Shown here piece by piece: positions 1-50,083 of a stretch of DNA of 54,502 bases (position 1 is the stretch's first letter; each line of letters begins with the position of its first letter). This DNA comes from an uncultured Mycoplasmatota bacterium (lineage in GTDB: Bacteria; Bacillota_I; Bacilli_A; RF39; UBA660). Made by a program: the position numbers and the translations under genes. The notes beneath the pieces were generated by a model that was given only the letters and a program-made list of their open reading frames with translations, was not told the DNA's origin and did no database searches. The DNA lies in NCBI GenBank assembly GCA_948466395.1, contig CAOKAG010000005.1:1-54502 (forward strand), written 5' to 3'.

Positions 1-101
1 TAAAACTCCGTATTAAAAGCAAAACTTCTTAATGAAAAATTAAATCGTGTGAAAATTATTCATACCTTTTACAAACTTCGTAAGTAAAGGTTCTCATAAT
101 T

Positions 102-2078
<1,977 letters not shown>

Positions 2079-4371: not shown

Positions 4372-4554
4372 ATGGAAAGAAGTGATAAAAGATTAGAACA
4401 TCTAAAAACTTATGTAGCAGAAATTGCTATGCTAGAATTTATCAAAGATAATAATTTAATTGATATTAACGAATACAAGAAAATCAAAAATAAAATTGAA
4501 AATGAATATGTAAAATATAACAAATTAAACAATTCAGAATATGGTTTTGCGTAA
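4372..4554 (+). CDS. Small helical protein encoded immediately upstream of the LSR (SHOCT-like LIDINEYKKIKNKI motif)
   Basis: 60 aa with RBS AAAGGGGG upstream. Same position and orientation relative to its LSR as ORF 45536-45733. Confidence 0.55.
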   Translation: MERSDKRLEHLKTYVAEIAMLEFIKDNNLIDINEYKKIKNKIENEYVKYNKLNNSEYGFA

Positions 4555-4603: not shown

Positions 4604-6385
4604 ATGAATAATAAAGCCCGCGTAATAGCACCAACTTCTAAAACAATGTGCTTAAAAGGAGATGTAAAATATAAACTTATTCGTACTTGCGCTTATTGTA
4701 GAGTTTCCACAGATAATGAAGATCAAAAGACAAGTTATGACTCACAACGAATTCATTATAAAAATATGATAGAAGAAAATCCTGACTGGGAATTTGTAGG
4801 AATCTATGCTGATGAGGGTATCACTGGTACACAGACTAAAAAAAGAGAACAATTTAATCAAATGATGAGTGATGCTTTAAATGGTAAGATTGATTTGATA
4901 CTAGCGAAGTCTATTTCAAGATTTGCTCGTAATACAGTTGATACTTTAAATTGTGTAAGACTTCTTCGTGAACATAATGTAGATGTATTCTTTGAAAAAG
5001 AAAACATTCATACTCTAGGTTTATCTAATGAATTATTCTTAACTTTATATAGTGCATTCGCACAAGCAGAAAGTGAATCAATATCCGAAAATGTAAAGGC
5101 TGGAGTTCGTATGAAAATGAAACGTGGAGAATTAGTAGGAAAGTATGCTCCATTTGGATATTTATATGATAAAGAGAAAGATATCATAATACCTGATGAA
5201 AGTAAGAAAGATATTGTTACTTACATTTTTGAAGAATATTCCAAAGGTGTGGGTTTTAGAACAATAGCATTACAGCTTAATCAACTAGGAATACCTAGTC
5301 CATCTAATTTAAAATGGTGTCATGCTTCAGTAAGAAGAATAATCACAAATGAAAAATATGTAGGAGATTTAAAAACTGGTAAATACTATACTGAAAATGT
5401 TTTAACTCATAAAAAGAAAGTTAATTATGGAGAGAAAGAACAATACTTTACTTCTAATCATCACGAACCTATTATCTCTCGCGAATTATGGAACAAATGT
5501 CAAGAAATATTAACTATTAGAAGTAAAATTAGCAAGCCAGATGGGAATCGTGATAAATTTAGTAGAAAGTATCCATTTAGTAGTAAAATCTTTTGTGAGA
5601 TATGTGGAGAGAGATTTATCAGACGTTCTTACAAAATCAGAAGTAGCGGTAAAGAAGTTGCTTATTGGATATGTAGAAGTCATAGAAATAAAATTGAATG
5701 TTCCAATCTTATCCATTATAAACAAGAAGAATTGGAAGATATATTTGTACTTGCTTATAACAAACTATTTCAAGATAGTGATAAATATATCCATTCATTT
5801 ATGAAAAAAGTAAATGAAGTAATCAATGACAATCAAGATTATAATAATCAAAAGAAGATTAAGGAAGAAATCTCTAAGCTAGAAAATAAGTTATCTAATT
5901 TAATAGATTTACAACTTGATGGCTCTATTTCAAAAGAAATACTAAATCAGAAAAATCAGGAAATTACTAAAAAGATTAAAGAGTACGAACAACAACTAAA
6001 AGATACTGAAGCTATAGAAAATACTAGAAAACAAAAATTAGAACAAATTGATAAAATATCTAATACCTTAAAACGGTATAAAGGTCTTACAAAATTTAAT
6101 GAAGAAGTATTCAATAGTCTAGTCGATAAGATTATCATTGGCGAAAAATTAGAAAACGGAAATGAAGATTTTTATAAAATTAAATTCATTTTAAAGACAG
6201 GAGAACTAATCAACGAAAATCTACCTAATGGGAAACTAGATATAGGTACAAGTTTTGGTAAATATGGTTTTACAATCACAAAACAAGAACTTGAAGAAAA
6301 AGAAGATAATGTGTCTGCCTATGTATTACAACGGCACACGAATATAAAGTCCTGCTATTTTCTTTTCATCATTCATATTTTTTAA
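4604..6385 (+). CDS. Large serine recombinase of the nested element. The last 16 codons are read from DNA outside the element.
   Basis: AYCRVSTDNEDQ catalytic motif, SRFARN, recombinase domain, zinc ribbon CEICG..CRSH, coiled coil, and a DUF4368-like FNSLVDKIIIGE..YKIKFIL. The ORF crosses the attR core at 6336-6337. Confidence 0.9.
   Translation: MNNKARVIAPTSKTMCLKGDVKYKLIRTCAYCRVSTDNEDQKTSYDSQRIHYKNMIEENPDWEFVGIYADEGITGTQTKKREQFNQMMSDALNGKIDLILAKSISRFARNTVDTLNCVRLLREHNVDVFFEKENIHTLGLSNELFLTLYSAFAQAESESISENVKAGVRMKMKRGELVGKYAPFGYLYDKEKDIIIPDESKKDIVTYIFEEYSKGVGFRTIALQLNQLGIPSPSNLKWCHASVRRIITNEKYVGDLKTGKYYTENVLTHKKKVNYGEKEQYFTSNHHEPIISRELWNKCQEILTIRSKISKPDGNRDKFSRKYPFSSKIFCEICGERFIRRSYKIRSSGKEVAYWICRSHRNKIECSNLIHYKQEELEDIFVLAYNKLFQDSDKYIHSFMKKVNEVINDNQDYNNQKKIKEEISKLENKLSNLIDLQLDGSISKEILNQKNQEITKKIKEYEQQLKDTEAIENTRKQKLEQIDKISNTLKRYKGLTKFNEEVFNSLVDKIIIGEKLENGNEDFYKIKFILKTGELINENLPNGKLDIGTSFGKYGFTITKQELEEKEDNVSAYVLQRHTNIKSCYFLFIIHIF
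6338..6376 (-). pseudogene. Outer LSR, detached 5' fragment (MNDEKKIAGLYIR, then V from the shared GT core)
   Basis: Minus strand reads AAAGGAGG-N9-ATG AAT GAT GAA AAG AAA ATA GCA GGA CTT TAT ATT CGT GT, then runs into CCG TTG TAA. The xxAxxYxRV pattern is the canonical start of a serine recombinase. Confidence 0.8.
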
Positions 6386-7014: not shown

Positions 7015-7091
7015 TGGTGTCCTGAGGGAGATTCGAACTCTCGACCGTACGCTTAGAAGGCGTATGCTCTATCCAGCTGAGCTATCAGGAC
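7015..7091 (-). tRNA. tRNA-Arg (anticodon UCU), CCA encoded
   Basis: Manual cloverleaf: 7-bp acceptor GUCCUGA/UCAGGAC, D arm GCUC..GAGC, anticodon stem UACGC/GCGUA with loop CUUCUAA, T loop UUCGAAU (one A-C mismatch in the T stem). 77 nt. Confidence 0.9.
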
Positions 7092-7133: not shown

Positions 7134-8087
7134 TTATTCAAGTGTATTTATAATCAAATTTACATTTTTATCGTCATTTTTTACAATAAATTCCACTTGT
7201 TTAACATTATAAGTATCTCTTAACGACAAATAGATCATATATTTAACTTCTTCTAAAATAGTTGTATTTTGAAGATCTTCAAAAATATAATTATTAAAAC
7301 TAAGTTTAATTTCCTCTTCTAATATTTCATAATTCGTTATTTCAGCATTTGCATGAAGAAAACTAATTAATTTTGATTCATAAATTGGAGAATTTTTTAA
7401 TTTTTCAATGATAATATCTATTTTTTCATTTTGATTATTACTCACATAAGTAATAGGAACATAATAAAAATAATCCTCCTCTTTACTCCCATAATAAATC
7501 GTCGTTTTAGTTGTATCTTTAATACTATCAATATCGTAAATCTTATTAACTCCAAAATCTTTATTTAAAAGAGAGGGCAACTTTTCTTTACTATAAGGAA
7601 GTTCAGTAAACCCCTTTCCTTCTACAAAAATTAAAATATTTTCTACTTCCTCTAATTCAGTTAAAGAATAAATAAGACTTTCAATCATTTTTCTTTCATT
7701 TTTTTCTGTTGTATTTAAAAACTCTTTTGAAAAATCAATCTTCAATAATTTGTTTTCTAAAGACACATTATTTATTTTTGTATTAACTGGAATCACTCCA
7801 AAAAAATGATCTGGAATATACTCGCTTTCTCTACTTTTAAGAGTCAAAATATTTATAATTTCTTTAATCTTCTCTAACGTTTCCTTATTATTAAAAACCA
7901 TATTCACTCTTGAAACATAATTTTCTTTATTTAGTAAATAAACCACGCCTTTTTGTGTCTCAATATAATTAAGCGTTTGTTTGTAATCATTATTTTCTAA
8001 TTTAGAAGGAAAAAAATAAGTCACCAATAAAATAAAAAGTGCTAAAGAAGAAATGGTAATTCTTCGAATAATCCCTTTTTTTAACAT
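7134..8087 (-). CDS. gerM: GerM-like sporulation/germination protein (membrane anchored, two GerMN-like halves)
   Basis: 317 aa with an N-terminal TM segment. VYLLNKENYVSRVNMVF and ILIFVEGKGFTEL resemble GerMN domain patterns. Confidence 0.55.
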   Translation of the reverse strand: MLKKGIIRRITISSLALFILLVTYFFPSKLENNDYKQTLNYIETQKGVVYLLNKENYVSRVNMVFNNKETLEKIKEIINILTLKSRESEYIPDHFFGVIPVNTKINNVSLENKLLKIDFSKEFLNTTEKNERKMIESLIYSLTELEEVENILIFVEGKGFTELPYSKEKLPSLLNKDFGVNKIYDIDSIKDTTKTTIYYGSKEEDYFYYVPITYVSNNQNEKIDIIIEKLKNSPIYESKLISFLHANAEITNYEILEEEIKLSFNNYIFEDLQNTTILEEVKYMIYLSLRDTYNVKQVEFIVKNDDKNVNLIINTLE

Positions 8088-8448: not shown

Positions 8449-8940
8449 TTACCCTTGAAATTTTACAACAATATACATCTTAGTTTCATATTCCTCTTGA
8501 ATGGTTCTAATAATATTATTGGCAAGTGTACTATTATGTTCTTTACTAGCTACAGTTACACTAATCTGATCATTTTTAATTTTAATAAAACAATCCAAAT
8601 TTAATTTTTCTTTTATCTTTTTTTCTAAAGCCTCCACTTTTCCCTTTGTCGCATTTAAGGTTTGAAGAGAATTATAAGCATCATTCTTTTCTTGCAAACT
8701 GGCGGTATCATCTAAAAGAATCGTTTGTAAACTCTCCATTTCAGCAAGCATTTCTTCTTCCTCTTTAACTTTCAACGAAACAAGTATACTACTTTCATTG
8801 GTTTCTAATACTTCTTTTACTTCATCTGTTTTATTAACGACTTGTAAAACTTCATCATTTTTGGTTGTAACATAATAAATCCCTAAAACTAAAATCAAAC
8901 TAAATAATGTAACAAACCATAAACCATTTTTATTAATCAT
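8449..8940 (-). CDS. spoIIIAH: Stage III sporulation protein AH
   Basis: 163 aa. The N-terminal TM (WFVTLFSLILVLGIYYV), acidic linker and C-terminal ISVTVASKEHNSTLANNIIRTIQEEY..VVKF are colinear with B. subtilis SpoIIIAH. Confidence 0.7.
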   Translation of the reverse strand: MINKNGLWFVTLFSLILVLGIYYVTTKNDEVLQVVNKTDEVKEVLETNESSILVSLKVKEEEEMLAEMESLQTILLDDTASLQEKNDAYNSLQTLNATKGKVEALEKKIKEKLNLDCFIKIKNDQISVTVASKEHNSTLANNIIRTIQEEYETKMYIVVKFQG

Positions 8941-15105: not shown

Positions 15106-15347
15106 AAAAAAATCTCCTCCCATTAAAAGGACGAGACTTTCCCGCGGTACCACCTTAATTCATGATTACTCATGCAACTCAATTAATGGATAACGGCCAT
15201 TATCCGAAAAAACTTACGAATTACTTTCAGTCTTTCAGCTTCCTTGCTACCTTCTATAATAAGTTTTACTTATTTTCACCACCCATAAGTTCTCTAAAAA
15301 AACCTTATTATATACTCCTCAAGTTCATTGCTTTTTCTACTATTATA
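15106..15347 (-). promoter_or_regulatory. T-box riboswitch leader, probable Val specifier GUA (15248-15250)
   Basis: Minus strand elements: promoter TTGAAA-N16-TATAAT (-10 at 15342-15347); AGAGA and GGGUGGUGAAA distal motifs; stem UAUAAUAAG/CUUAUUAUA; specifier loop GAAGGUAG; T-box GGUGGUACCGCG (15143-15154); terminator plus U7. Confidence 0.85.
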
Positions 15348-43163: not shown

Positions 43164-43760
43164 ATGAAAAGAAAAATAGTTTGTTGTTTAATTGGATTAG
43201 TTCTATTATCTGGAATCGGAATAACCGTTAAAAAATTCGGTACAAAAGATAACTTAACAACCATTCGTGTTTCAGAAGTAACACACAGTGCCTTTTACGC
43301 TCCATTTTATGTAGCCATTGAAGAAGGGTATTTCAAAGAATACAACCTTGACATTGACTTAATTTTAACGAGTGGCGCAGACAAAGTAGCTGCAGCGGTT
43401 TTATCTAATGACGTTCAAGTAGGATTCGCAGGCCCCGAAAGTGCCATTTACGTCTATAATGGTGGTGAAGAAGATTACTTAGTAACTTTTAGTGGTCTTA
43501 CCAAAAGAGACGGTCAATTTATTATTTCAAGAGAAAAAATTTCTAATTTTACATTAAATGACTTAAAAGAAAAGGAAATATTAGCTGGACGTACAGGAGG
43601 TATGCCAATCTTAAATTTCCAAAACGCCTTAAAAAATGAAAATATAAATGAAAAAGACTTAAACATTAATACAAGTATTGAATTTGCATCTTTAGCGGGA
43701 TCATTCATATCTGGAGAGGGAGACTTTGTAAATCTTTTTGAACAAAACGCGCGAGAATGA
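43164..43760 (+). pseudogene. ABC transporter substrate-binding protein (NMT1/SsuA-like), 5' part. Native to 43741; the last 6 codons and the stop come from the inserted element.
   Basis: Signal/lipobox-like N-terminus. ..GDFVNLFE then QNARE-stop. The continuation ..PNATKLVKEGYGH.. is found in frame at 48147. Confidence 0.85.
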
Positions 43761-43788
43761 AGTCTCCAAGTGAAAAATTATAAGCATA

Positions 43789-45495
43789 TTACATGCAAAA
43801 ATAACCATTCACTTGATAATTGACCTTATATCTTTTAGTCCCTTGCGTATCATATCCTCTTTTAAATTCATAACTACTTCTTAAAATGGGTTGTCGTTTT
43901 TTATTTTGGTTATCTTTATAAGATAAAAATATATTCAATTCTATATTATTTTTATCATTACTTATTTTAGATACGACGATATGATCTAGTAATGAACTAA
44001 TAATTTTAGTTATGGTTGATTTAGAATTAACTTTTAAATTTAAGCTATCCTTTAACGCTTTTGTTTTATCAGTAGTTGTCTTTAATTTATCTTTATCAAG
44101 TTTAAGTTGATTCAACTCTTTGATAAGAGTATTTATCTTATCATTAAATTGATTATTTCTTTCGTAAAATTCTTCATTAGATAAACCACCCTCGATACTT
44201 AATTCTAATATCTTATCTTTCTTAGTATATAGATTATTAATTTCTTTTTCTCTAGATGAAATTTCTTCATCAATATCAGTATCTATTTCGAGATGATTAT
44301 AATAATTGATTAAAGTATCGATAATATCTTTAGAATCAATTTGCAGTTTAAATATTAAATCTTTAAAAATAGCATCTAATTCGGATTCTCTAATATTTGG
44401 TGAATCACAAGTAGCTTTACCCTTTTTTAAATATTCCGAGCAAACCCAAGTAATATCTTTGTTAACTCGCCTAAACTCTCTTCTGTGGAAAACTGTATTG
44501 TGCTCTGCACAATAAATTTTAGCACTATACAAGTATCTATTTTTATAAATACTTTTATCCTCTTTTCGCATCACAAATGCTTTTTTTCTTGTCATTAAAC
44601 GAGTATTAGCTCTTTCCCACAAATCTTCATCGATGATTGGTGGGATTCTTATTTTATCCTCATAGATAACCCAATCGTCTTTTTCAAAGTATTTTATTTT
44701 TTTAGTCATATAGTCTACTATTTCAGATTTTCTAGCACAATAATATCCTTTATATTTAGGATTTTCTATCATTCTAGAAATGGTAGAAATACACCATTTT
44801 TTATTTTGACAAGTTTTTAGACCTTCACTATTTAGTATTTTTGAAATTTTAGATAGTGATAATTCTTCAATTCCATAGAGTTCATATATTCTTCTAACTA
44901 TTTTTGCTTCATTTTCTATAATAGTAAGTACACCTGTATCCTTATCTTTTTGATAGCCATAAAGCATATCATTACCAAGTATTTCTCCTCGTTCTATTGC
45001 ACGATTCATACCAAATTTAACACGTTCTGATAATCTTCTTATTTCATCTTGTGCCATAGAAGCCATTATAGTAAGTCTAAGTTCAGAATCAGGCATAGCT
45101 GTATTAATATTATCATTTACAAATAATACAGCCACTCCATAAGATAATAGTTCTCTAGTATATTTAATACTATCAAGTGTATTTCTTGAAAATCTAGATA
45201 TTTCTTTAGTAACTATTAAATCAAATTTACCAAGTCTAGCCTCTTCAATCATTTTCATAAAATTATCTCTTTTAACATCACTTGTACCAGTTATTCCGTC
45301 ATCTACATAACCTTTGATATAAGTCCAATTTGGATTTTGTTTTATATATTGTTCAAAATGTTCCACTTGATTTTGAAGGGACTTCTTTTGTTCTAAATGA
45401 TCAGTTGATACTCTTGCATAATCTGTTACTCTAAGTTTTATACTTGTAAGTGGCATTCCCATATTTAACTGCTTTCGAACAGTATATAAATCCAA
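43789..45495 (-). CDS. Large serine recombinase
   Basis: DYARVSTDHLEQ, SRFSRN, recombinase domain, zinc ribbon CAEHN..CSEY..C, coiled coil. The stop is 45 nt from the left att core. Confidence 0.9.
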   Translation of the reverse strand: MDLYTVRKQLNMGMPLTSIKLRVTDYARVSTDHLEQKKSLQNQVEHFEQYIKQNPNWTYIKGYVDDGITGTSDVKRDNFMKMIEEARLGKFDLIVTKEISRFSRNTLDSIKYTRELLSYGVAVLFVNDNINTAMPDSELRLTIMASMAQDEIRRLSERVKFGMNRAIERGEILGNDMLYGYQKDKDTGVLTIIENEAKIVRRIYELYGIEELSLSKISKILNSEGLKTCQNKKWCISTISRMIENPKYKGYYCARKSEIVDYMTKKIKYFEKDDWVIYEDKIRIPPIIDEDLWERANTRLMTRKKAFVMRKEDKSIYKNRYLYSAKIYCAEHNTVFHRREFRRVNKDITWVCSEYLKKGKATCDSPNIRESELDAIFKDLIFKLQIDSKDIIDTLINYYNHLEIDTDIDEEISSREKEINNLYTKKDKILELSIEGGLSNEEFYERNNQFNDKINTLIKELNQLKLDKDKLKTTTDKTKALKDSLNLKVNSKSTITKIISSLLDHIVVSKISNDKNNIELNIFLSYKDNQNKKRQPILRSSYEFKRGYDTQGTKRYKVNYQVNGYFCM

Positions 45496-45535
45496 TGCTT
45501 CTTCTCCTTTCTAATAGAATTATACCCTATTATTT

Positions 45536-45733
45536 TCATGTATTAGCATTTGCACCACTTACACTCACAATTTTTAATTCTTTTAAGATATTTTCTTCTG
45601 TAAATTTAAACATCTTAAAAGATATTTTTTTTTCATCAAATAACTCTTTATTTAAGGAAAGAGCTACATTTAAAAGAATTGCTTTATTTTTATATTTTAC
45701 TTCTTTACTTCTCATCATATCATTAGAATCCAT
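45536..45733 (-). CDS. Small helical protein immediately upstream of the LSR
   Basis: 65 aa, RBS AAGGAG. Same arrangement as 4372-4554. Confidence 0.5.
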   Translation of the reverse strand: MDSNDMMRSKEVKYKNKAILLNVALSLNKELFDEKKISFKMFKFTEENILKELKIVSVSGANANT

Positions 45734-46176
45734 AACCCATCTCCTTCATTTAAAACTATGAGAAAAAGCGTAAAATAATACGTTAAGAAAAAAACAGAAG
45801 CTATTTATTTAGTTTCTGCTTAGTTTCTTTTATTTGTCTAACGGTTAAAGTAGTTTCATTTGTTTTAATTAGCATTCTTATCTCATTATGGTAAAAAGTA
45901 TTGTTTTATTTAATCATCCCAATAATCCTTGTTCATATTCTATTAGCAACCCTAATAGAATCACTCATTATTTTAATTATTTCATTTTTACCTTCAATAT
46001 CTTCTTTATATAAAGACTTTTATAGCATGATTTAATCGCTCTTCTGATACTCCTAATTTTCTTTCTCTATCATTTCGATATATCCATTTATTTTTCTTGT
46101 TAAGGAAAAATTCCTAAAACCCGTTATAGTCTCCGCCAGTTTAGATATATTTCATTCCTATTTCACACTTTCTTTG

Positions 46177-47154
46177 TTATTTATCGATTTCTTCTATTTC
46201 TTTGTTTAGTATTTCTAAGTAATCTTGTTCGGCGGTAGTTAAATGTTTTTGCATATATTTATCATATTCTTCATGTGCTTTTTTTAACGCTTCTTCATGT
46301 GATATTATCCCATTATCTTTTAAAATATCTTTTCTTGTCATCTTTAAAAATGTATCTAATTCATTAACCCAATCTTTCATTGTCATAGGATGTCTATCTA
46401 AAGCATTAATTTCTGCAATATCTAAATAAGCTGATACCATTCTATTTAGAGTATTAAGTTCTTCCTCAGTTAAATAGTTTTTAGCAATTTCAGTTTCACT
46501 TTTTGTTGGATAATCACCTTTAAAATTAGTAAGTCCTAGATTTTCTTTATTAGAATCAACTCGTTTAAATATTACTTCAGCAGCGGTATTGCCATGAGTA
46601 GCATAATGCATTTTGTTTTGCACAGTTTTGAAAAAATTTATAGATAATTTATCTTTGGGATTATAATCAATTGAAGTTGCATAAATATCCAATACTTTTC
46701 TCCAAAAAATTTTTTCCGAAGATCTAATATCACGAATTCTAGCAAGTAATTCTTCAAAGTATGGACTTTCACCATTATTTTTTAATCTCTCATCATTTAA
46801 AACAAAACCTTTAATCATATATTCTTTTAATACCTTAGTTGCCCATATTCTAAATTCAGTAGCCTTTTTAGAGTTAATTCTATACCCAACAGCAATAATA
46901 GCATCTAAATTATAGTGCAAAACATTATACTTTTTACCATCATTAGCAGTTGTTAAGAATTTCTTAACAACTGAATCTTTTTGTAACTCACCTTCATCAA
47001 AAATATTTTTTAAGTGCATAGAAATATTATTTTTAGTAGTATCATAAAGATTAGCCATTACATCTTGACTCATCCATATATCTTCATTTTGTATATTAAC
47101 ATCAACTTTTACATTACCATCTTTTGATACATATATAATCATATTATTTTTCAT
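46177..47154 (-). CDS. RhuM-family protein
   Basis: IWMSQDVMANLYDTTKNNISMHLKNIFDEGEL..AVGYRINSKKATEFRIWATKVLKEY is the RhuM-type N-terminal pattern as I recall it. Confidence 0.65.
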   Translation of the reverse strand: MKNNMIIYVSKDGNVKVDVNIQNEDIWMSQDVMANLYDTTKNNISMHLKNIFDEGELQKDSVVKKFLTTANDGKKYNVLHYNLDAIIAVGYRINSKKATEFRIWATKVLKEYMIKGFVLNDERLKNNGESPYFEELLARIRDIRSSEKIFWRKVLDIYATSIDYNPKDKLSINFFKTVQNKMHYATHGNTAAEVIFKRVDSNKENLGLTNFKGDYPTKSETEIAKNYLTEEELNTLNRMVSAYLDIAEINALDRHPMTMKDWVNELDTFLKMTRKDILKDNGIISHEEALKKAHEEYDKYMQKHLTTAEQDYLEILNKEIEEIDK

Positions 47155-47170
47155 TGAATCACTCCTAATC

Positions 47171-48025
47171 TTATTTAATATTTCTATTTATCCATTTTAA
47201 AATTATTTTAGAAATCTCTTCTTCTTTGTTGTTATAAAAATGATTTGTATTATCTATAATTTGATATTCAAAATTATTACAATTAATTGCCTTTTCTTTT
47301 AATAAATATTGCTTTAAATATGTTGGATATTCATTACTTCCAGCAAAAGATAGAATTGGTATATTAATAGTAGATAATTGTTCAAAGATTTCTGGATTTC
47401 TTTCAATAGGAAAATTATCAATATTACTATTTTCTAAAGATTCGTTTATAAAAGTGGCAGAGCTTATATAATCAGTCCCACCAATTAATGTATTTAGTAA
47501 CTTTCTAGGATTATTATTTTTTACATTGCTTTCTGCTTCACTTAATAAATTATCAAACTTGCTTTCTTCCTTTTTTGTAATACCAACCATATCGGATGCC
47601 GAAGCTAAAATAAGACCTTGTACATCATCTTTGCTTTTTGATAAATAATATAATGCTTTGTTACATCCCAAACTATGTCCCATTAAAATAATCTTTTTAT
47701 ATCCTAATTCTTTTACTTTTTTTATCCAAACCTCAATATCTTTTAAACAATCTTCAAATATTTCAAAAGTAGCACCATTAAATTTTAAATTACCATCCTT
47801 TTTACTCATACAGTTGATATAAGAATAACCACGATTATGACTATATAAAAAACTGGTTCCATTATTAGAAAGATATTTTCCTAAAACATAGGCAAAATAG
47901 TTATCTACAATACTTTGTGCTTGTCCATGAATAAATAATACACAACAATCTAGTTTACCTGAATCAAAGTATGTTCCCTGTACACGTAAATTATCTTCAG
48001 TATATTCATAAAATAAATCTATCAT
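47171..48025 (-). CDS. Alpha/beta hydrolase (Ser-Asp-His)
   Basis: Nucleophile elbow GHSLG, with candidate Asp (ASASD) and His (NTNHF). Promoter TATAAT at the right end of the element. Confidence 0.65.
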   Translation of the reverse strand: MIDLFYEYTEDNLRVQGTYFDSGKLDCCVLFIHGQAQSIVDNYFAYVLGKYLSNNGTSFLYSHNRGYSYINCMSKKDGNLKFNGATFEIFEDCLKDIEVWIKKVKELGYKKIILMGHSLGCNKALYYLSKSKDDVQGLILASASDMVGITKKEESKFDNLLSEAESNVKNNNPRKLLNTLIGGTDYISSATFINESLENSNIDNFPIERNPEIFEQLSTINIPILSFAGSNEYPTYLKQYLLKEKAINCNNFEYQIIDNTNHFYNNKEEEISKIILKWINRNIK

Positions 48026-48143
48026 AGCTAGTCACCTCTAATAAATTATACTAAAAAAGTCCTAGTTTTCCTAGAACTCAGCAGTATTTTATATGGAAAT
48101 TTATTTTGAACAATATTAGTGACTTCTTATACTTGCACTAAGA

Positions 48144-48554
48144 GAACCAAATGCCACAAAGTTAGTTAAAGAAGGCTATGGACACATTGTTGGAAACATT
48201 GGAGCTTATTCAGGTGAAGTCCCTTATACCGCTTTCTATTCAAGAAAAAGTTATTTAGAAAACAATAAAGAAACCTTAATTAACTTTACAAAAGCCATTA
48301 ATAAAGGATTAGAGTATGTAAAAAATCATTCATCTGAAGAAATTGCCAAAATCATCTTACCACAATTTCCAGACATTTCACTAACCGATCTAACAACCAT
48401 TGTCGACAATTATAAAAAATACGATTCTTGGCTTTCAAACAGTTTTATTACAGAAGAAAGTTATAAAAATTTAGAAAACATTATGATGGATGCCAAATTA
48501 CTTGAAAACGATGTTCCATACGATCAATTAATCAATAATTTAAATAATGAATAA
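48144..48554 (+). pseudogene. ABC transporter substrate-binding protein, 3' part (136 codons plus stop)
   Basis: Open frame E PNATKLVKEGYGHIVGNIGAYSGEVPYTAFYSRKSYLENN..NNLNNE-stop. Overlaps the ATPase start, as expected for an operon. Confidence 0.85.
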
Positions 48555-49296
48555 ACTTTTAGATATTAAAAATATAACCAAAAAATACAACACCGAAGAT
48601 GGAGAAATTAATGCCATTGAAAACATCAATCTAGAGGTTTATAAAAATGAATTTATTGCAATTGTAGGATCATCAGGGTGTGGAAAATCAACACTCTTAA
48701 ATATTATATCGGGATTAGAAGAAAAAACCAGTGGTACAATAAATTTTAACGAACCCAACTTGAAAATTGGTTACATGTTTCAAAGCGATTGTCTATTTCC
48801 ATGGTTAACCATTTATGAAAATTGTTTAATTGGACTTACTATCGAAAAGCAAAAAACAAAAGAAAAAGAAGAATACGTCAAATCTTTATTAAAAAAATAC
48901 AATTTATGGGAATTCAGTGACAAGTATCCCTCATGTTTATCAGGGGGCATGAAACAAAGAGTCGCTTTAATTAGAACACTTGCTATCCATCCCGATATTT
49001 TATTACTAGATGAACCATTTAGTGCTTTGGACTATCAAAGTCGCTTAGCCATTAGTAATGACGTCTATGAAATTATAAAAAATGAGAAAAAAACAGCGAT
49101 TATAGTGACACACGATATTGCTGAAGCCATCAGTTTATCCGATAAAGTCTATATTTTAAGTAAAAGACCTTGTACTATTAAAAAAATGTATTCAATTGAT
49201 TTAAAAGAAAATCAAAACCCAATAGCGAAAAGAAAAGATAAAAAATTTATGGAATACTACGATAAAATATGGGAGAGCATTGATACTAATGTCTAA
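48547..49296 (+). CDS. ABC transporter ATP-binding protein (NitT/TauT family)
   Basis: Walker A GSSGCGKST, signature LSGGMKQR, Walker B LLLDEP. Confidence 0.9.
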   Translation: MNKLLDIKNITKKYNTEDGEINAIENINLEVYKNEFIAIVGSSGCGKSTLLNIISGLEEKTSGTINFNEPNLKIGYMFQSDCLFPWLTIYENCLIGLTIEKQKTKEKEEYVKSLLKKYNLWEFSDKYPSCLSGGMKQRVALIRTLAIHPDILLLDEPFSALDYQSRLAISNDVYEIIKNEKKTAIIVTHDIAEAISLSDKVYILSKRPCTIKKMYSIDLKENQNPIAKRKDKKFMEYYDKIWESIDTNV

Positions 49297-50083
49297 AGAA
49301 CAAATTGCATTTTTAAGAAAAAAGAAAACAAAAAAAATCATCATTATCGTCTCTCAACTTGTTTTAACGCTCTCTTTTCTTTTACTATGGCAATGCTTAT
49401 CCGATCAAAAAATCATAAACCCTTTTATTTTCTCAAGTCCTAAAAAAATCGTTGAAACCATCTTTTCACTTTATCAAAATTATAATTTAATCACTCATAT
49501 ACTAACCACCGTTTTTGAAACCATTATTGCGTTTACTCTTGGAATATCTCTAGGATTTATGATAGCTGTTTTACTCTATGAACTACCCCTACTCCAAAAA
49601 ATATTAGACCCATTTTTAACCATGTTAAATTCTCTACCCAAAGTCGCATTAGGTCCAATTATAATCATTTGGTGTGGAGCAAATACGAACTCCATCATTG
49701 TTATGGCTTTACTAATTAATTTAATTATCAGTATTATTACTATTTATAATGGTTTTTTAAATACTGATAATTATAAAATAAAACTATTAAAATCTTTTAA
49801 AGCAACTAAATTTCAAATCTTATCAAAAGTAGTGATTCCAGAATCGTTTAAAACCATCATTGCCAGTTTCAAAATCAATATTTCTTTATCTTTAATTGGT
49901 TGTATTTCTGGAGAATTTTTAGTCAGTCGCAAAGGTATAGGATACCTAATAATCTATGGAACACAAATATTTAATTTAAATATTGTAATGAGTGGTATCA
50001 TTATTCTAATTCTAATTTCTTTTATTCTTTACGAATGTATTGATAAATTAGAAAAATATCTCTTAAAAAAAATAAGTGGCTAA
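49289..50083 (+). CDS. ABC transporter permease (NitT/TauT family)
   Basis: 6 TM with a binding-protein-dependent transport motif region. The ATG at 49289 overlaps the ATPase stop; the tracked TTG start is 49280. Confidence 0.8.
   Translation: MSKEQIAFLRKKKTKKIIIIVSQLVLTLSFLLLWQCLSDQKIINPFIFSSPKKIVETIFSLYQNYNLITHILTTVFETIIAFTLGISLGFMIAVLLYELPLLQKILDPFLTMLNSLPKVALGPIIIIWCGANTNSIIVMALLINLIISIITIYNGFLNTDNYKIKLLKSFKATKFQILSKVVIPESFKTIIASFKINISLSLIGCISGEFLVSRKGIGYLIIYGTQIFNLNIVMSGIIILILISFILYECIDKLEKYLLKKISG

Follow-up and report, generated by a model that had tools for sequence, protein, structure and literature searches.

A gene for an ABC-transporter substrate-binding protein in an uncultured Mycoplasmatota bacterium (RF39; UBA660) is split into two parts, and the DNA between them encodes a large serine recombinase (LSR). 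What kind of element interrupts the gene, and is the interruption a switch that the host can reverse, the residue of a dead integration, or the work of a cassette that moves between species? We approached this question through the window, by which we mean the whole stretch of DNA that was analysed (54,502 nt; contig CAOKAG010000005.1, assembly GCA_948466395.1).

The interrupted gene and its intact counterparts

The interrupted operon consists of the following features, in window coordinates.

43164..43741, plus strand: 5' part of the substrate-binding protein gene, codons 1-193 up to the GA of codon GAA (from the ORF and the splice)
43742 to 48145: LSR cassette of 4,404 bp; small, non-phage and integrative
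48146..48555, plus strand: 3' part of the binding-protein gene, comprising the third base of codon 193, codons 194-328 and the stop (from the splice and its translation)
48547-49296, plus strand: intact ABC ATPase gene (ORF), a downstream cistron of the interrupted operon
49280-50083, plus strand: intact permease gene (ORF), a downstream cistron of the interrupted operon

The bases GAAC occur at 43740-43743 and again at 48144-48147, a spacing of 4,404 bp. When the two gene parts are spliced they form an unbroken ORF of 328 codons whose stop overlaps the ATPase start. Pfam NMT1 spans the junction (aa 193) of the spliced protein as one stretch (aa 46-256), and the protein also matches Pfam NMT1_2 and NCBIfam SsuA_fam. 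The preliminary description had held that an LSR element cleanly splits this gene, that removal of 4,404 bp at a shared GAAC rebuilds it, and that intact alleles and orthologues aligning across the junction should exist. The coordinates were confirmed and the att sites are base-precise; intact 328-aa orthologues align across the junction at 93-96% identity, and the exact junction predicted was recovered in them and in three independent empty sites (loci L001 and L002 and a contig of run X38). Locus L001 has the identical gene order of binding protein, ATPase and permease without interruption, and its flanks meet at 1597|1598. Run X38 supplied a 7.9-kb contig from a relative with an empty site, in which position 43739 is joined to 48144 with 4404 skipped (GA..GA).

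Comparison of the 3' part of the split gene with an intact orthologue gave a dN/dS of 0.014-0.028, and the split gene gave 0.035-0.041; relaxed selection is not apparent, and these low values point to a recent insertion. The insertion probably inactivates the transporter, and it may plausibly be polar on the ATPase and permease genes that follow.

Attachment sites and the crossover dinucleotide

The two junctions are resolved as follows.

43720..43766, plus strand: attL, made up of the attB left arm (43720-43739), GA (43740-43741) and the attP right arm (43742-43766); from a 37-locus junction alignment, consensus, symmetry and the 5-bp shift described below
48119..48165, plus strand: attR, made up of the attP left arm (48119-48143), GA (48144-48145) and the attB right arm (48146-48165); from a 35-locus junction alignment, consensus and the inner motif at shift 0

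The cassette was very probably integrated by its own LSR, with attP (~52 bp, on the cassette) and attB (~40 bp, in the binding-protein gene) undergoing conservative, site-specific recombination and strands being exchanged at the dinucleotide GA. This dinucleotide is present at both junctions in all 22 elements examined, and in four sister elements among them it is the only base pair that attL and attR have in common. Its invariance at both junctions, together with these four elements, identifies GA as the crossover dinucleotide, a choice that had earlier been made from symmetry alone. There is no target duplication; exchange is conservative and takes place at a non-palindromic 2-bp GA, as LSR systems require.

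The left (attB) arm of attL carries GACTTT at -18..-13 and its right (attP) arm GAAGTC at +18..+23, while the left (attP) arm of attR carries GACTTC at -23..-18; the reconstituted attB has ACTTTGT and ACAAAGT at -/+11..17. Against a null in which each window position was taken as a centre, attP is symmetric at 13/25 positions with a run of 6 (p ~0.015 and ~0.010, respectively). For attB, a symmetric run of 7 has p ~0.003, and the whole-site symmetry (10/25) is unremarkable. Symmetry centred on AA or AC is lower than that centred on GA. In judging these repeats the family comparison decides more than the p-values do. The family attP consensus is symmetric at 21/28 positions, and its conservation stops near +/-25 in elements with differing terminal cargo. 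The GACTTC/GAAGTC dyad, proposed in the preliminary description, is almost invariant across the family. The attB repeat proposed alongside it is present as described, but it is specific to this one host allele rather than a conserved feature: positions 11-17 are symmetric in 10-90% of hosts, and the repeat is not conserved outside the window's host.

The conserved elements of attB are, on the left half-site, the outer motif of attP displaced 5 bp inward and, on the right half-site, the inner motif. The family attP is an imperfect palindrome with an inner motif at approximately positions 1-10 (consensus nCTTAGTG) and an outer motif at positions 17-25 (AAGAAGTCa), and attB lies on the codons encoding G-D-F-V-x-L-F-E-P-N-A. 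The outer-motif profile of attP scores +4.1 bits on the left half of attB only at a shift of +5 bp (-19 to -33 elsewhere), and the inner motif scores +5.1 bits on the right half at shift 0. AAAGTC occupies attB positions 13-18 in 15/22 hosts, compared with GAAGTC at attP positions 18-23. On the right half-site of attB the shifted outer motif is weak in most hosts; the allele in the window stands out by carrying this motif on both halves (AAAGTC and AAAGTT). The inward position of the outer motif on the left, together with the right-hand inner motif, would allow the LSR to discriminate attB from attP.

This arrangement resembles a model of the Listeria phage A118/LI integrase, in which the outer zinc-ribbon-domain motif lies at ~16-24 in attP and 5 bp inward in attB (PMC3783163). 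Both systems have an attP that is an imperfect palindrome of ~50 bp, a 2-bp crossover and an inner recombinase-domain motif fixed in attP and attB, but here the shifted motif is clear across hosts only on the left attB half-site. The proteins themselves are distant, with no A118/LI chain among the LSR sequence matches at E <= 1e-5.

Recombinase, companion ORF and cargo

The cassette contains the following features, all on the minus strand.

43789..45495: large serine recombinase, 568 aa (Pfam, PHROG and PDB relatives)
45536..45733: o65, a 65-aa ORF, candidate directionality factor or regulator (synteny, conservation)
45795..45818: hairpin, then TTTTTTTCTT (minus-strand reading), between the decayed C02 and o65 (scan and sequence)
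45804..46095: pseudogene remnants of C02 (C-terminal two-thirds) and C03 (first ~25 codons) (tblastn)
46177..47154: RhuM-family protein, 325 aa, cargo (Pfam Virulence_RhuM, 2.1e-108; PADLOC PDC-S05, 1.1e-149)
47171..48025: alpha/beta hydrolase, 284 aa, cargo (Pfam Abhydrolase_1, 9.3e-11; DUF1749, 9e-10; Hydrolase_4)

The LSR is complete, with all three Pfam domains present: Resolvase (PF00239, E = 1.8e-32, residues 26-171), Recombinase (PF07508, E = 1.1e-22, residues 194-302) and Zn_ribbon_recom (PF13408, E = 4e-09, residues 322-381). The catalytic serine, read off the translation, lies within YARVST. Serine integrases have a coiled-coil motif inserted in the zinc-ribbon domain, and residues ~400-490 here contain much charged, heptad-like sequence. 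The stop codon (43789-43791) is 45 nt from the end of the GAAC core, in agreement with the earlier reading. The protein matches a PHROG integrase at E = 2.7e-112, and its relatives in the PDB include 3g13 and, weakly, SprA (9dxh, E = 2.6e-10). Assignment to the Ccr recombinases was rejected, with NCBIfam scores of 112.9 (CcrB) and 110.4 bits (CcrC) against a cut-off of 900 and a target other than rlmH.

[quoted passage not shown] Its 133 homologues (58-99 aa, nearly all 62-67) contain no Pfam domain, and residues 10-54 are almost invariant. A profile of o65 matches 64 small ORFs, every one adjoining an LSR of the same family (c0). The AF2 model is a two-helix hairpin (pLDDT 87), a generic helical fold with no match in the PDB at E <= 0.001. 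The hairpin in the DNA upstream of o65, which the scan flagged on the plus strand and whose T-run was read from the minus strand, is terminator-like and suggests that o65 and the LSR may form their own transcription unit.

The remnants of C02 and C03 were detected by tblastn with sister-element proteins (E 1e-12 to 1e-24) and have stops in all three frames. Both genes are intact in sister elements, occurring in 10/25 and 9/25 delimited elements, respectively. The window's copy of the cassette is probably recent but in part decayed, with its two core-proximal genes pseudogenised. An intact sister C02 has a NikA-like match below threshold (22.9 bits; cut-off, 27), and Pfam searches found no relaxase, oriT accessory protein or type IV secretion genes in the window's cassette. 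We rejected an integrative mobilisable or conjugative element given this lack of transfer machinery, the sub-threshold match of C02 and its pseudogene state here. A prophage or phage satellite was likewise rejected: the cassette holds no phage structural, replication or packaging genes, its PHROGs matches are the integrase and weak "unknown/other" families, and its relatives are absent from the IMG/VR search. The closest LSR in phage records is 39.8% identical.

The PDC-S05 profile covers residues 2-318 of the 325 in the RhuM-family protein, whose gene is found in 16/25 delimited elements and is a candidate anti-phage defence gene by these profile matches. The hydrolase gene is found in only 4/25. 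Across these 25 elements (3.2-9.6 kb), more than 40 gene clusters occur as cargo, including QatABC, PDC-S20/S22/M43, Old/GajA-like, PifA and AbiLi; the cargo of the family is interchangeable and rich in anti-phage defence candidates.

A same-codon family and the competing explanations

We identified 71 related loci (45 from genomes and 26 from metagenomes) in which an LSR 58-91% identical to that of the window occupies the same codon, spanning ~45 species of uncultured gut Bacilli; all 47 of the classifiable copies are attL. In 299/300 pairs the LSRs are more similar to each other than the host binding proteins are (median identity 0.86 versus 0.58; Mantel p = 0.16), which shows that the family moves horizontally between host species. 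Other LSR clades split the same operon at five further sites, so that the insertion sites are binding protein aa 193, ~144, ~93 and ~70, ATPase aa ~138 and permease aa ~208. In some operons as many as three or four different LSR insertions are present, and decayed family copies exist, such as the LSR fragments in L031-L033.

The preliminary description had likened the interruption to skin and SPbeta. On a reading of this type the host keeps or tolerates the element as a switch, and in response to a defined condition, for example sporulation or stress, the LSR and an RDF would cut it out and rebuild the transporter gene in some cells. Much about the locus recalls SPbeta SprA/SprB, skin and gin GirC/GirX (PMC5499854, PMC5595907, PMC11722253): the element is bounded by an LSR system, it interrupts a coding gene that precise excision would rebuild (in-silico excision restored the open frame in 25/25 elements), and a small protein gene strictly co-inherited with the recombinase adjoins it, as sprB adjoins sprA (SprB, 58 aa; o65, 65 aa). 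The window also contains sporulation-associated genes (Germane/GerM, 69 bits; SpoIIIAH-like, 41.5 bits), spore-formers are predicted among related uncultured Bacilli orders (PMC10868615), the split gene retains its low dN/dS, and gin is a precedent for a non-phage element of this kind, with an unknown transfer route (PMC5595907). However, SPbeta, skin and gin split genes of sporulation and are excised in response to a developmental signal, whereas the gene interrupted here encodes an NMT1/SsuA-type solute-binding protein and is no mother-cell sporulation gene; on this ground a sporulation-type element (skin, SPbeta, gin, vfbin) is not supported. Moreover, conservation is far stronger in the LSR than in the host gene, and the two do not diverge together, so the insertions are recent arrivals rather than fixtures, and recent arrival alone explains the intact gene halves and their low dN/dS. 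The variable, defence-rich cargo is what a selfish shuttle would carry, and the stacked insertions and decayed copies also speak against a maintained switch. An excised circle or attP junction was not seen in IMG/VR, JGI metagenome contigs or the contigs of 12 runs, but these low-depth assembled contigs could not reveal rare events, and this result weighs little. We therefore regard a regulated switch as improbable, and the earlier comparison was not upheld.

Somewhat less improbable, though still unlikely, is that the cassette is a dead remnant of a single past integration, the interruption having become fixed as a loss-of-function allele of a transporter that the host can do without. The two pseudogenised genes, the plainly decayed copies elsewhere and the unseen excision joint would fit this reading. 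Yet the LSR, o65, RhuM and hydrolase genes are full-length, the first three being 79-94% identical to sister copies; both att arms fit the family consensus; and neither the split gene nor the downstream cistrons show decay. In addition, many otherwise intact family members lack C02 and C03, which are thus probably dispensable for recombination. An assembly or binning artefact, in which a mobile-element contig was misjoined into the transporter gene of the MAG, might be suspected of an organism known from metagenomes with short, low-depth contigs in public runs. It is effectively refuted by contigs from independent mouse-gut runs that cover attL (X1, X2 and X4) and attR (X3, X4 and X6), by recurrence of the junction architecture in 47 independently assembled loci, among them a closed 1.31-Mb long-read chromosome (L019), and by junction sequences that follow exact LSR att-site logic. 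Taken as a whole, the locus is very probably explained by a non-phage, LSR-inserted cassette of a same-codon family that is horizontally mobile and carries defence-rich, exchangeable cargo. The window's own copy may still be mobile.

The 4,404-bp cassette is a clean but ordinary case of a known kind of element, and it belongs to a widespread same-codon family. In the LSR catalogue of Durrant et al. [quoted passage not shown] As in those elements, the LSR here lies beside an att site, the target is a conserved block of a coding gene, boundaries can be reconstructed from empty sites, and diverged LSRs (here to 58% identity) retain one target; the differences are that the present hosts are uncultured reduced-genome gut Bacilli and that five more LSR clades use other codons within the same operon. 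Another parallel is SCC with its Ccr recombinases, which shares small non-phage LSR cassettes, one conserved target gene, exchangeable cargo, composites or tandem accretions and the lack of its own transfer machinery. SCC enters rlmH at its 3' end and does not destroy the gene, and Ccr enzymes integrate and excise without an RDF.

We also considered, as a speculative extension that we hold to be doubtful, that the NMT1-type operon is a lineage-wide landing pad. At least six LSR clades, each specialised on its own conserved codon block of the 2.5-kb operon, would stack exchangeable defence-rich cassettes there; the operon would act as a modular defence island, the transporter would be restorable by excision, and small LSR-linked proteins such as o65 would set the direction.

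For annotation, our findings mean that the binding-protein gene, although it looks "truncated", is no pseudogene but has been split by insertion of a mobile element, whose att sites are exactly known. For recombinase biology, the family provides more than 20 independent attP/attB pairs for one LSR family across host sites diverged to 40-60% protein identity, a natural data set that fixes the crossover dinucleotide and displays the 5-bp shift of the zinc-ribbon motif without experiment. The compact LSR, its 65-aa partner and the att sites may serve as an orthogonal integration tool. For gut microbiology, small LSR cassettes carry candidate anti-phage genes among species of an uncultured, reduced-genome lineage, in which a single transporter operon takes many insertions.

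The split gene and its empty sites

The tetranucleotide GAAC is read at 43740-43743 and again at 48144-48147, a spacing of 4,404 bp. The cassette delimited by these junctions contains four ORFs, every one on the minus strand.

The cassette and its genes
43742..48145, cassette, 4,404 bp
43789..45495 (-), large serine recombinase (LSR), 568 aa, domains Resolvase, Recombinase and Zn_ribbon_recom; stop codon 45 nt from the GAAC core
45536..45733 (-), o65, a 65-aa ORF without family match
(-), RhuM-family protein, PADLOC candidate defence family PDC-S05 (E = 1e-149)
(-), alpha/beta hydrolase

Joining 43164..43741 to 48146..48555 yields a 328-codon ORF whose stop overlaps the ATPase start codon. Pfam NMT1 and NMT1_2 give one continuous match to the spliced substrate-binding protein (SBP) at residues 46-256, spanning junction residue 193, and the NCBIfam SsuA-family match falls below threshold. 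Removal of 4,404 bp thus restores the ~328-aa protein foreseen in the preliminary description. That description had also called for a search for intact alleles, and these exist: with the spliced protein as query, intact 328-aa proteins were recovered at identities of 96, 94, 94, and 93% (100% coverage), along with thousands of more distant full-length relatives. Two contigs that encode such relatives, L001 and L002 (~86-91% DNA identity), have the window's gene order (radical-SAM gene, binding protein, ATPase, permease) without the insertion, and the window flanks meet there at neighbouring bases (L001 1597|1598). As independent evidence, a 7.9-kb contig from the mouse-gut run X38 joins 43739 to 48144, skipping 4,404 nt from GA to GA with 4 ambiguous bases. 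The integrated junctions are covered by contigs from several independent runs, which excludes an assembly artefact. The preliminary observation is correct and well delimited.

A recombinase family at one codon and its attachment sites

We collected relatives of the LSR (58-91% identity) from 45 species-representative genomes and 26 metagenome contigs. The genomes are uncultured gut MAGs throughout, one of them a closed 1.31-Mb chromosome; they derive from mouse, rabbit, human, goat, and deer, and most bear the label Bacilli, Mollicutes, or Tenericutes. Where the flanks were long enough, nearly every locus has the SBP gene divided so that its 5' part ends with residue 193 and its 3' part opens with 194. 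Sequence downstream of the LSR allowed 47 of the 71 loci to be classified by regular expression, and all 47 carry attL (a cassette end in the host gene) and 0 carry attP (joined cassette ends). Compared with the window, host binding proteins are 40-65% identical and LSRs 73-91%. LSR identity exceeds host-gene identity in 299/300 pairs (medians 0.86 and 0.58; 96% against 44% in the most extreme pair), with no significant correlation between these identities (Mantel p = 0.16). These comparisons indicate that the family spreads horizontally among diverged hosts, using the same site in each.

In an LSR subfamily that uses the same codon 193|194 (58-61% identical; L039, L040, L042, and L046, e.g., L046 9800-12873), the recombinase and small ORF lie instead at the attR end of the element, and the cargo follows downstream of the LSR; the smallest element is ~3.1 kb. 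Signs of both accretion and decay are seen at this site. In L033 15124-19597, a RhuM pseudogene, another RhuM, and a C-terminal fragment of an LSR lie beside attL. LSR and o65 fragments lie upstream of intact copies at L031 8562-8821 and L032 8541-8803, and the 5' gene half is inverted at L030 13144-13743.

Both ends could be aligned in 22 elements. GA is present at both junctions in all of them, and identity at the crossover comprises GAAC in 16 and GA alone in 4. Because attL and attR of the latter four share nothing but GA, it is the crossover dinucleotide, and a centre previously picked from symmetry only is now fixed by comparison. The family attP consensus, ..TAGtGACTTCTTATtCTTGCACTAAGA-GA-AC.tAGTGtaaGAGAATGAAGTCaC.., is symmetric at 21/28 positions, with GACTTC/GAAGTC at +/-18-23 nearly invariant, so that the attP dyad originally described from one element holds family-wide. 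Conservation ends at ~+/-25 in elements whose terminal cargo differs, which sets attP at ~52 bp. In the window, 13/25 attP positions are symmetric (p ~0.015) with a run of 6 (p ~0.010), each window position being taken as a null centre. The repeat ACTTTGT/ACAAAGT proposed for attB, the empty host site, forms a run of 7 in the window allele (p ~0.003 by the same null) but is absent as a conserved feature in other hosts, even empty-site relatives.

The attP outer-motif profile (positions 17-25) scores +4.1 bits on the attB left half-site only when moved 5 bp centre-ward, and -19 to -33 bits at every other shift. AAAGTC occupies attB 13-18 in 15/22 hosts, and the attP inner motif, with a shift of 0, scores +5.1 bits on the right half-site of attB. 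The same layout is known from the LI/A118 integrase, for which attP has the zinc-ribbon-domain motif at 16-24 and attB has it 5 bp further in (PMC3783163). The proposed attB repeat overlaps this shifted motif, which the window allele happens to have on both half-sites (AAAGTC, AAAGTT). The attB site sits in codons for the peptide G-D-F-V-x-L-F-E-P-N-A, and conservation of this peptide explains why attB survives in such diverged hosts. Excision would be expected to produce attB ..gtaaatctttttGAaccaaatgccac.. and attP ..cttgcactaagaGAacaaaacgcgcg... In L025, the inner attP right arm (acctaatgctt) at attL (~5667-5691) equals the attB right arm over 11 bases, differing from every other family member; this attL could be a hybrid site from an unusual recombination event.

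Small partner ORF, cargo, and element class

Searches of o65 against Pfam, PHROG, NCBIfam, and PADLOC gave no match. Among 5.8 billion proteins we found 133 homologues, of 58-99 aa and almost all 62-67, none with a Pfam domain; residues 10-54 are nearly invariant. Across the fetched loci, the o65 profile detected 64 small ORFs, each ~40-50 nt upstream of a family LSR; beside other LSR clades it detected none, window ORF 4372-4554 included. The AlphaFold model is a two-helix hairpin (pLDDT 87), for which Foldseek against the PDB returned generic helical hairpins only. Recombination directionality factors (RDFs) share no common fold (PMC12286644), and small helical RDFs adjoining their LSR are known, such as the 58-aa SprB (PMC5499854, PMC11722253), which like o65 is a small helical protein encoded beside an LSR. 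By this analogy, it is reasonable to regard o65 as a candidate RDF or regulator.

Cargo was compared in 25 fully delimited elements of 3.2-9.6 kb. Only the LSR (25/25), the small ORF, and RhuM (16/25) recur widely; the other cargo genes form more than 40 clusters, almost all in LSR orientation. Defence-type cargo includes QatA/B/C, PDC-S20, PDC-S22, PDC-M43A/B, Old/GajA-like, PifA, AbiLi, a KAP NTPase, DUF4411 with an M78 peptidase, and WYL proteins. Metabolic cargo includes GH3, HAD, YdjC, and an ABC exporter. RhuM has been proposed by comparative genomics to be a toxin domain tied to restriction-modification and PrrC loci (PMC3710099). The seemingly non-coding gap at 45735-46176 contains pseudogene fragments, with stops in all frames, of C02 and its neighbour C03, gene clusters that are intact in sister elements. 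Because only these fragments survive, the window's copy is a deletion derivative, but one that retains an intact LSR, small ORF, and pair of att arms. Mobilisation functions are hinted at only by a NikA-like match of C02 that stays below threshold.

A phage origin was rejected: the cassette contains no phage genes beyond its integrase, no relatives were found in IMG/VR, and LSRs of annotated phage and plasmid records are at most 40% identical to its own. SCC and XisF membership was likewise rejected, with scores below the NCBIfam cut-offs.

A promoter-like match, TTGAAC-16-TATACT (48106-48133, +), lies in the conserved outer attP left arm and faces outward to the 3' gene fragment and, beyond it, the genes for the ATPase and permease. 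Were this match an active promoter, any polar effect on downstream genes would be reduced. A sigma-70-like promoter scan gave 31 sites against 39 in shuffles, which is below chance and uninformative in AT-rich DNA. In RNA runs, at most 8% of sampled words were common to the LSR region.

Other recombinases at the operon and the nature of the insertion

The three-gene operon is also interrupted at five other recurrent positions by LSRs of distant clades (22-41% identical to that of the cassette), and a single operon can hold up to three or four insertions. Of 17 further LSRs within +/-10 kb, about 15 fall inside the 2.5-kb operon, which therefore looks like a hotspot for several recombinases.

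Other LSRs in the operon, by fetched locus
SBP aa ~70: L041 12202-13404
SBP aa ~93: L019 16122-17891
SBP aa ~144: L009 12066-13667; L022 9886-11439
Permease aa ~208: L010 1896-3200; L036 2137-3306; L042 6731-7999
ATPase aa ~138: L026, L030, L032, L039, L040
ATPase aa ~140: L019 3861-5489
Further LSR in L019: 19561-21123

Other features of the window
102-2000 (-), full-length LSR gene at the window edge
4372-4554 (+), 60-aa ORF directly upstream of the next LSR
4604-6385 (+), full-length LSR gene; this and 102-2000 are unrelated to each other and to the cassette LSR (separate clusters)
7018-7091 (-), tRNA gene near LSR 4604-6385
7134-8087 (-), GerM-type "Germane" domain protein (69 bits)
8449-8940 (-), SpoIIIAH-like protein (41.5 bits, exceeding the Pfam cut-off)
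15124-15337 (-), T-box leader (137 bits) upstream of an HD-domain gene and valS

The host is a low-GC (28.7%) gut Bacillus-class organism, probably of the RF39 type, with an apparently reduced genome. The preliminary description likened the cassette to the skin and SPbeta intervening elements of spore-formers, which would make it a domesticated developmental switch of the sporulation type. The premise of a spore-forming host is plausible, given the GerM-type and SpoIIIAH-like genes and the sporulating species predicted among uncultured Bacilli orders related to Mycoplasmatales (PMC10868615). In silico excision regains the open frame in 25/25 elements, and dN/dS of the split gene against its intact orthologue (0.035-0.041) is no higher than that of the adjoining ATPase (0.074); both are equally expected from merely recent insertions. 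The analogy itself is not supported: the interrupted gene is not one of sporulation, the family moves horizontally and its cargo varies, some copies have decayed, and several operons hold multiple different LSR insertions. These findings favour a selfish insertion of recent date over a developmental switch domesticated by the host. Searching IMG/VR and the JGI metagenome contigs with a degenerate pattern of the family attP revealed neither a free attP nor a circular form. In the low-depth assembled contigs of 12 runs (Logan, ~2-20x), the one relevant joint was an empty site, and it came from a 90-95% relative. Another apparent joint that recurred (45780->43161, 38 letters inserted) depends on matches of ~20 nt and was discarded as spurious.

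Horizontal spread to one fixed site is already documented for LSRs generally (Durrant et al., PMC10083194), and the cassette belongs to the known kind of LSR cassette that inserts site-specifically into conserved coding sequence. To this the present analysis adds proof, from the family as a whole, that crossover takes place at GA; the 5-bp displacement of the motif in attB relative to attP; the conserved small ORF that accompanies the LSR; the variable, defence-rich cargo; and the targeting of five further positions of the operon by other LSR clades.
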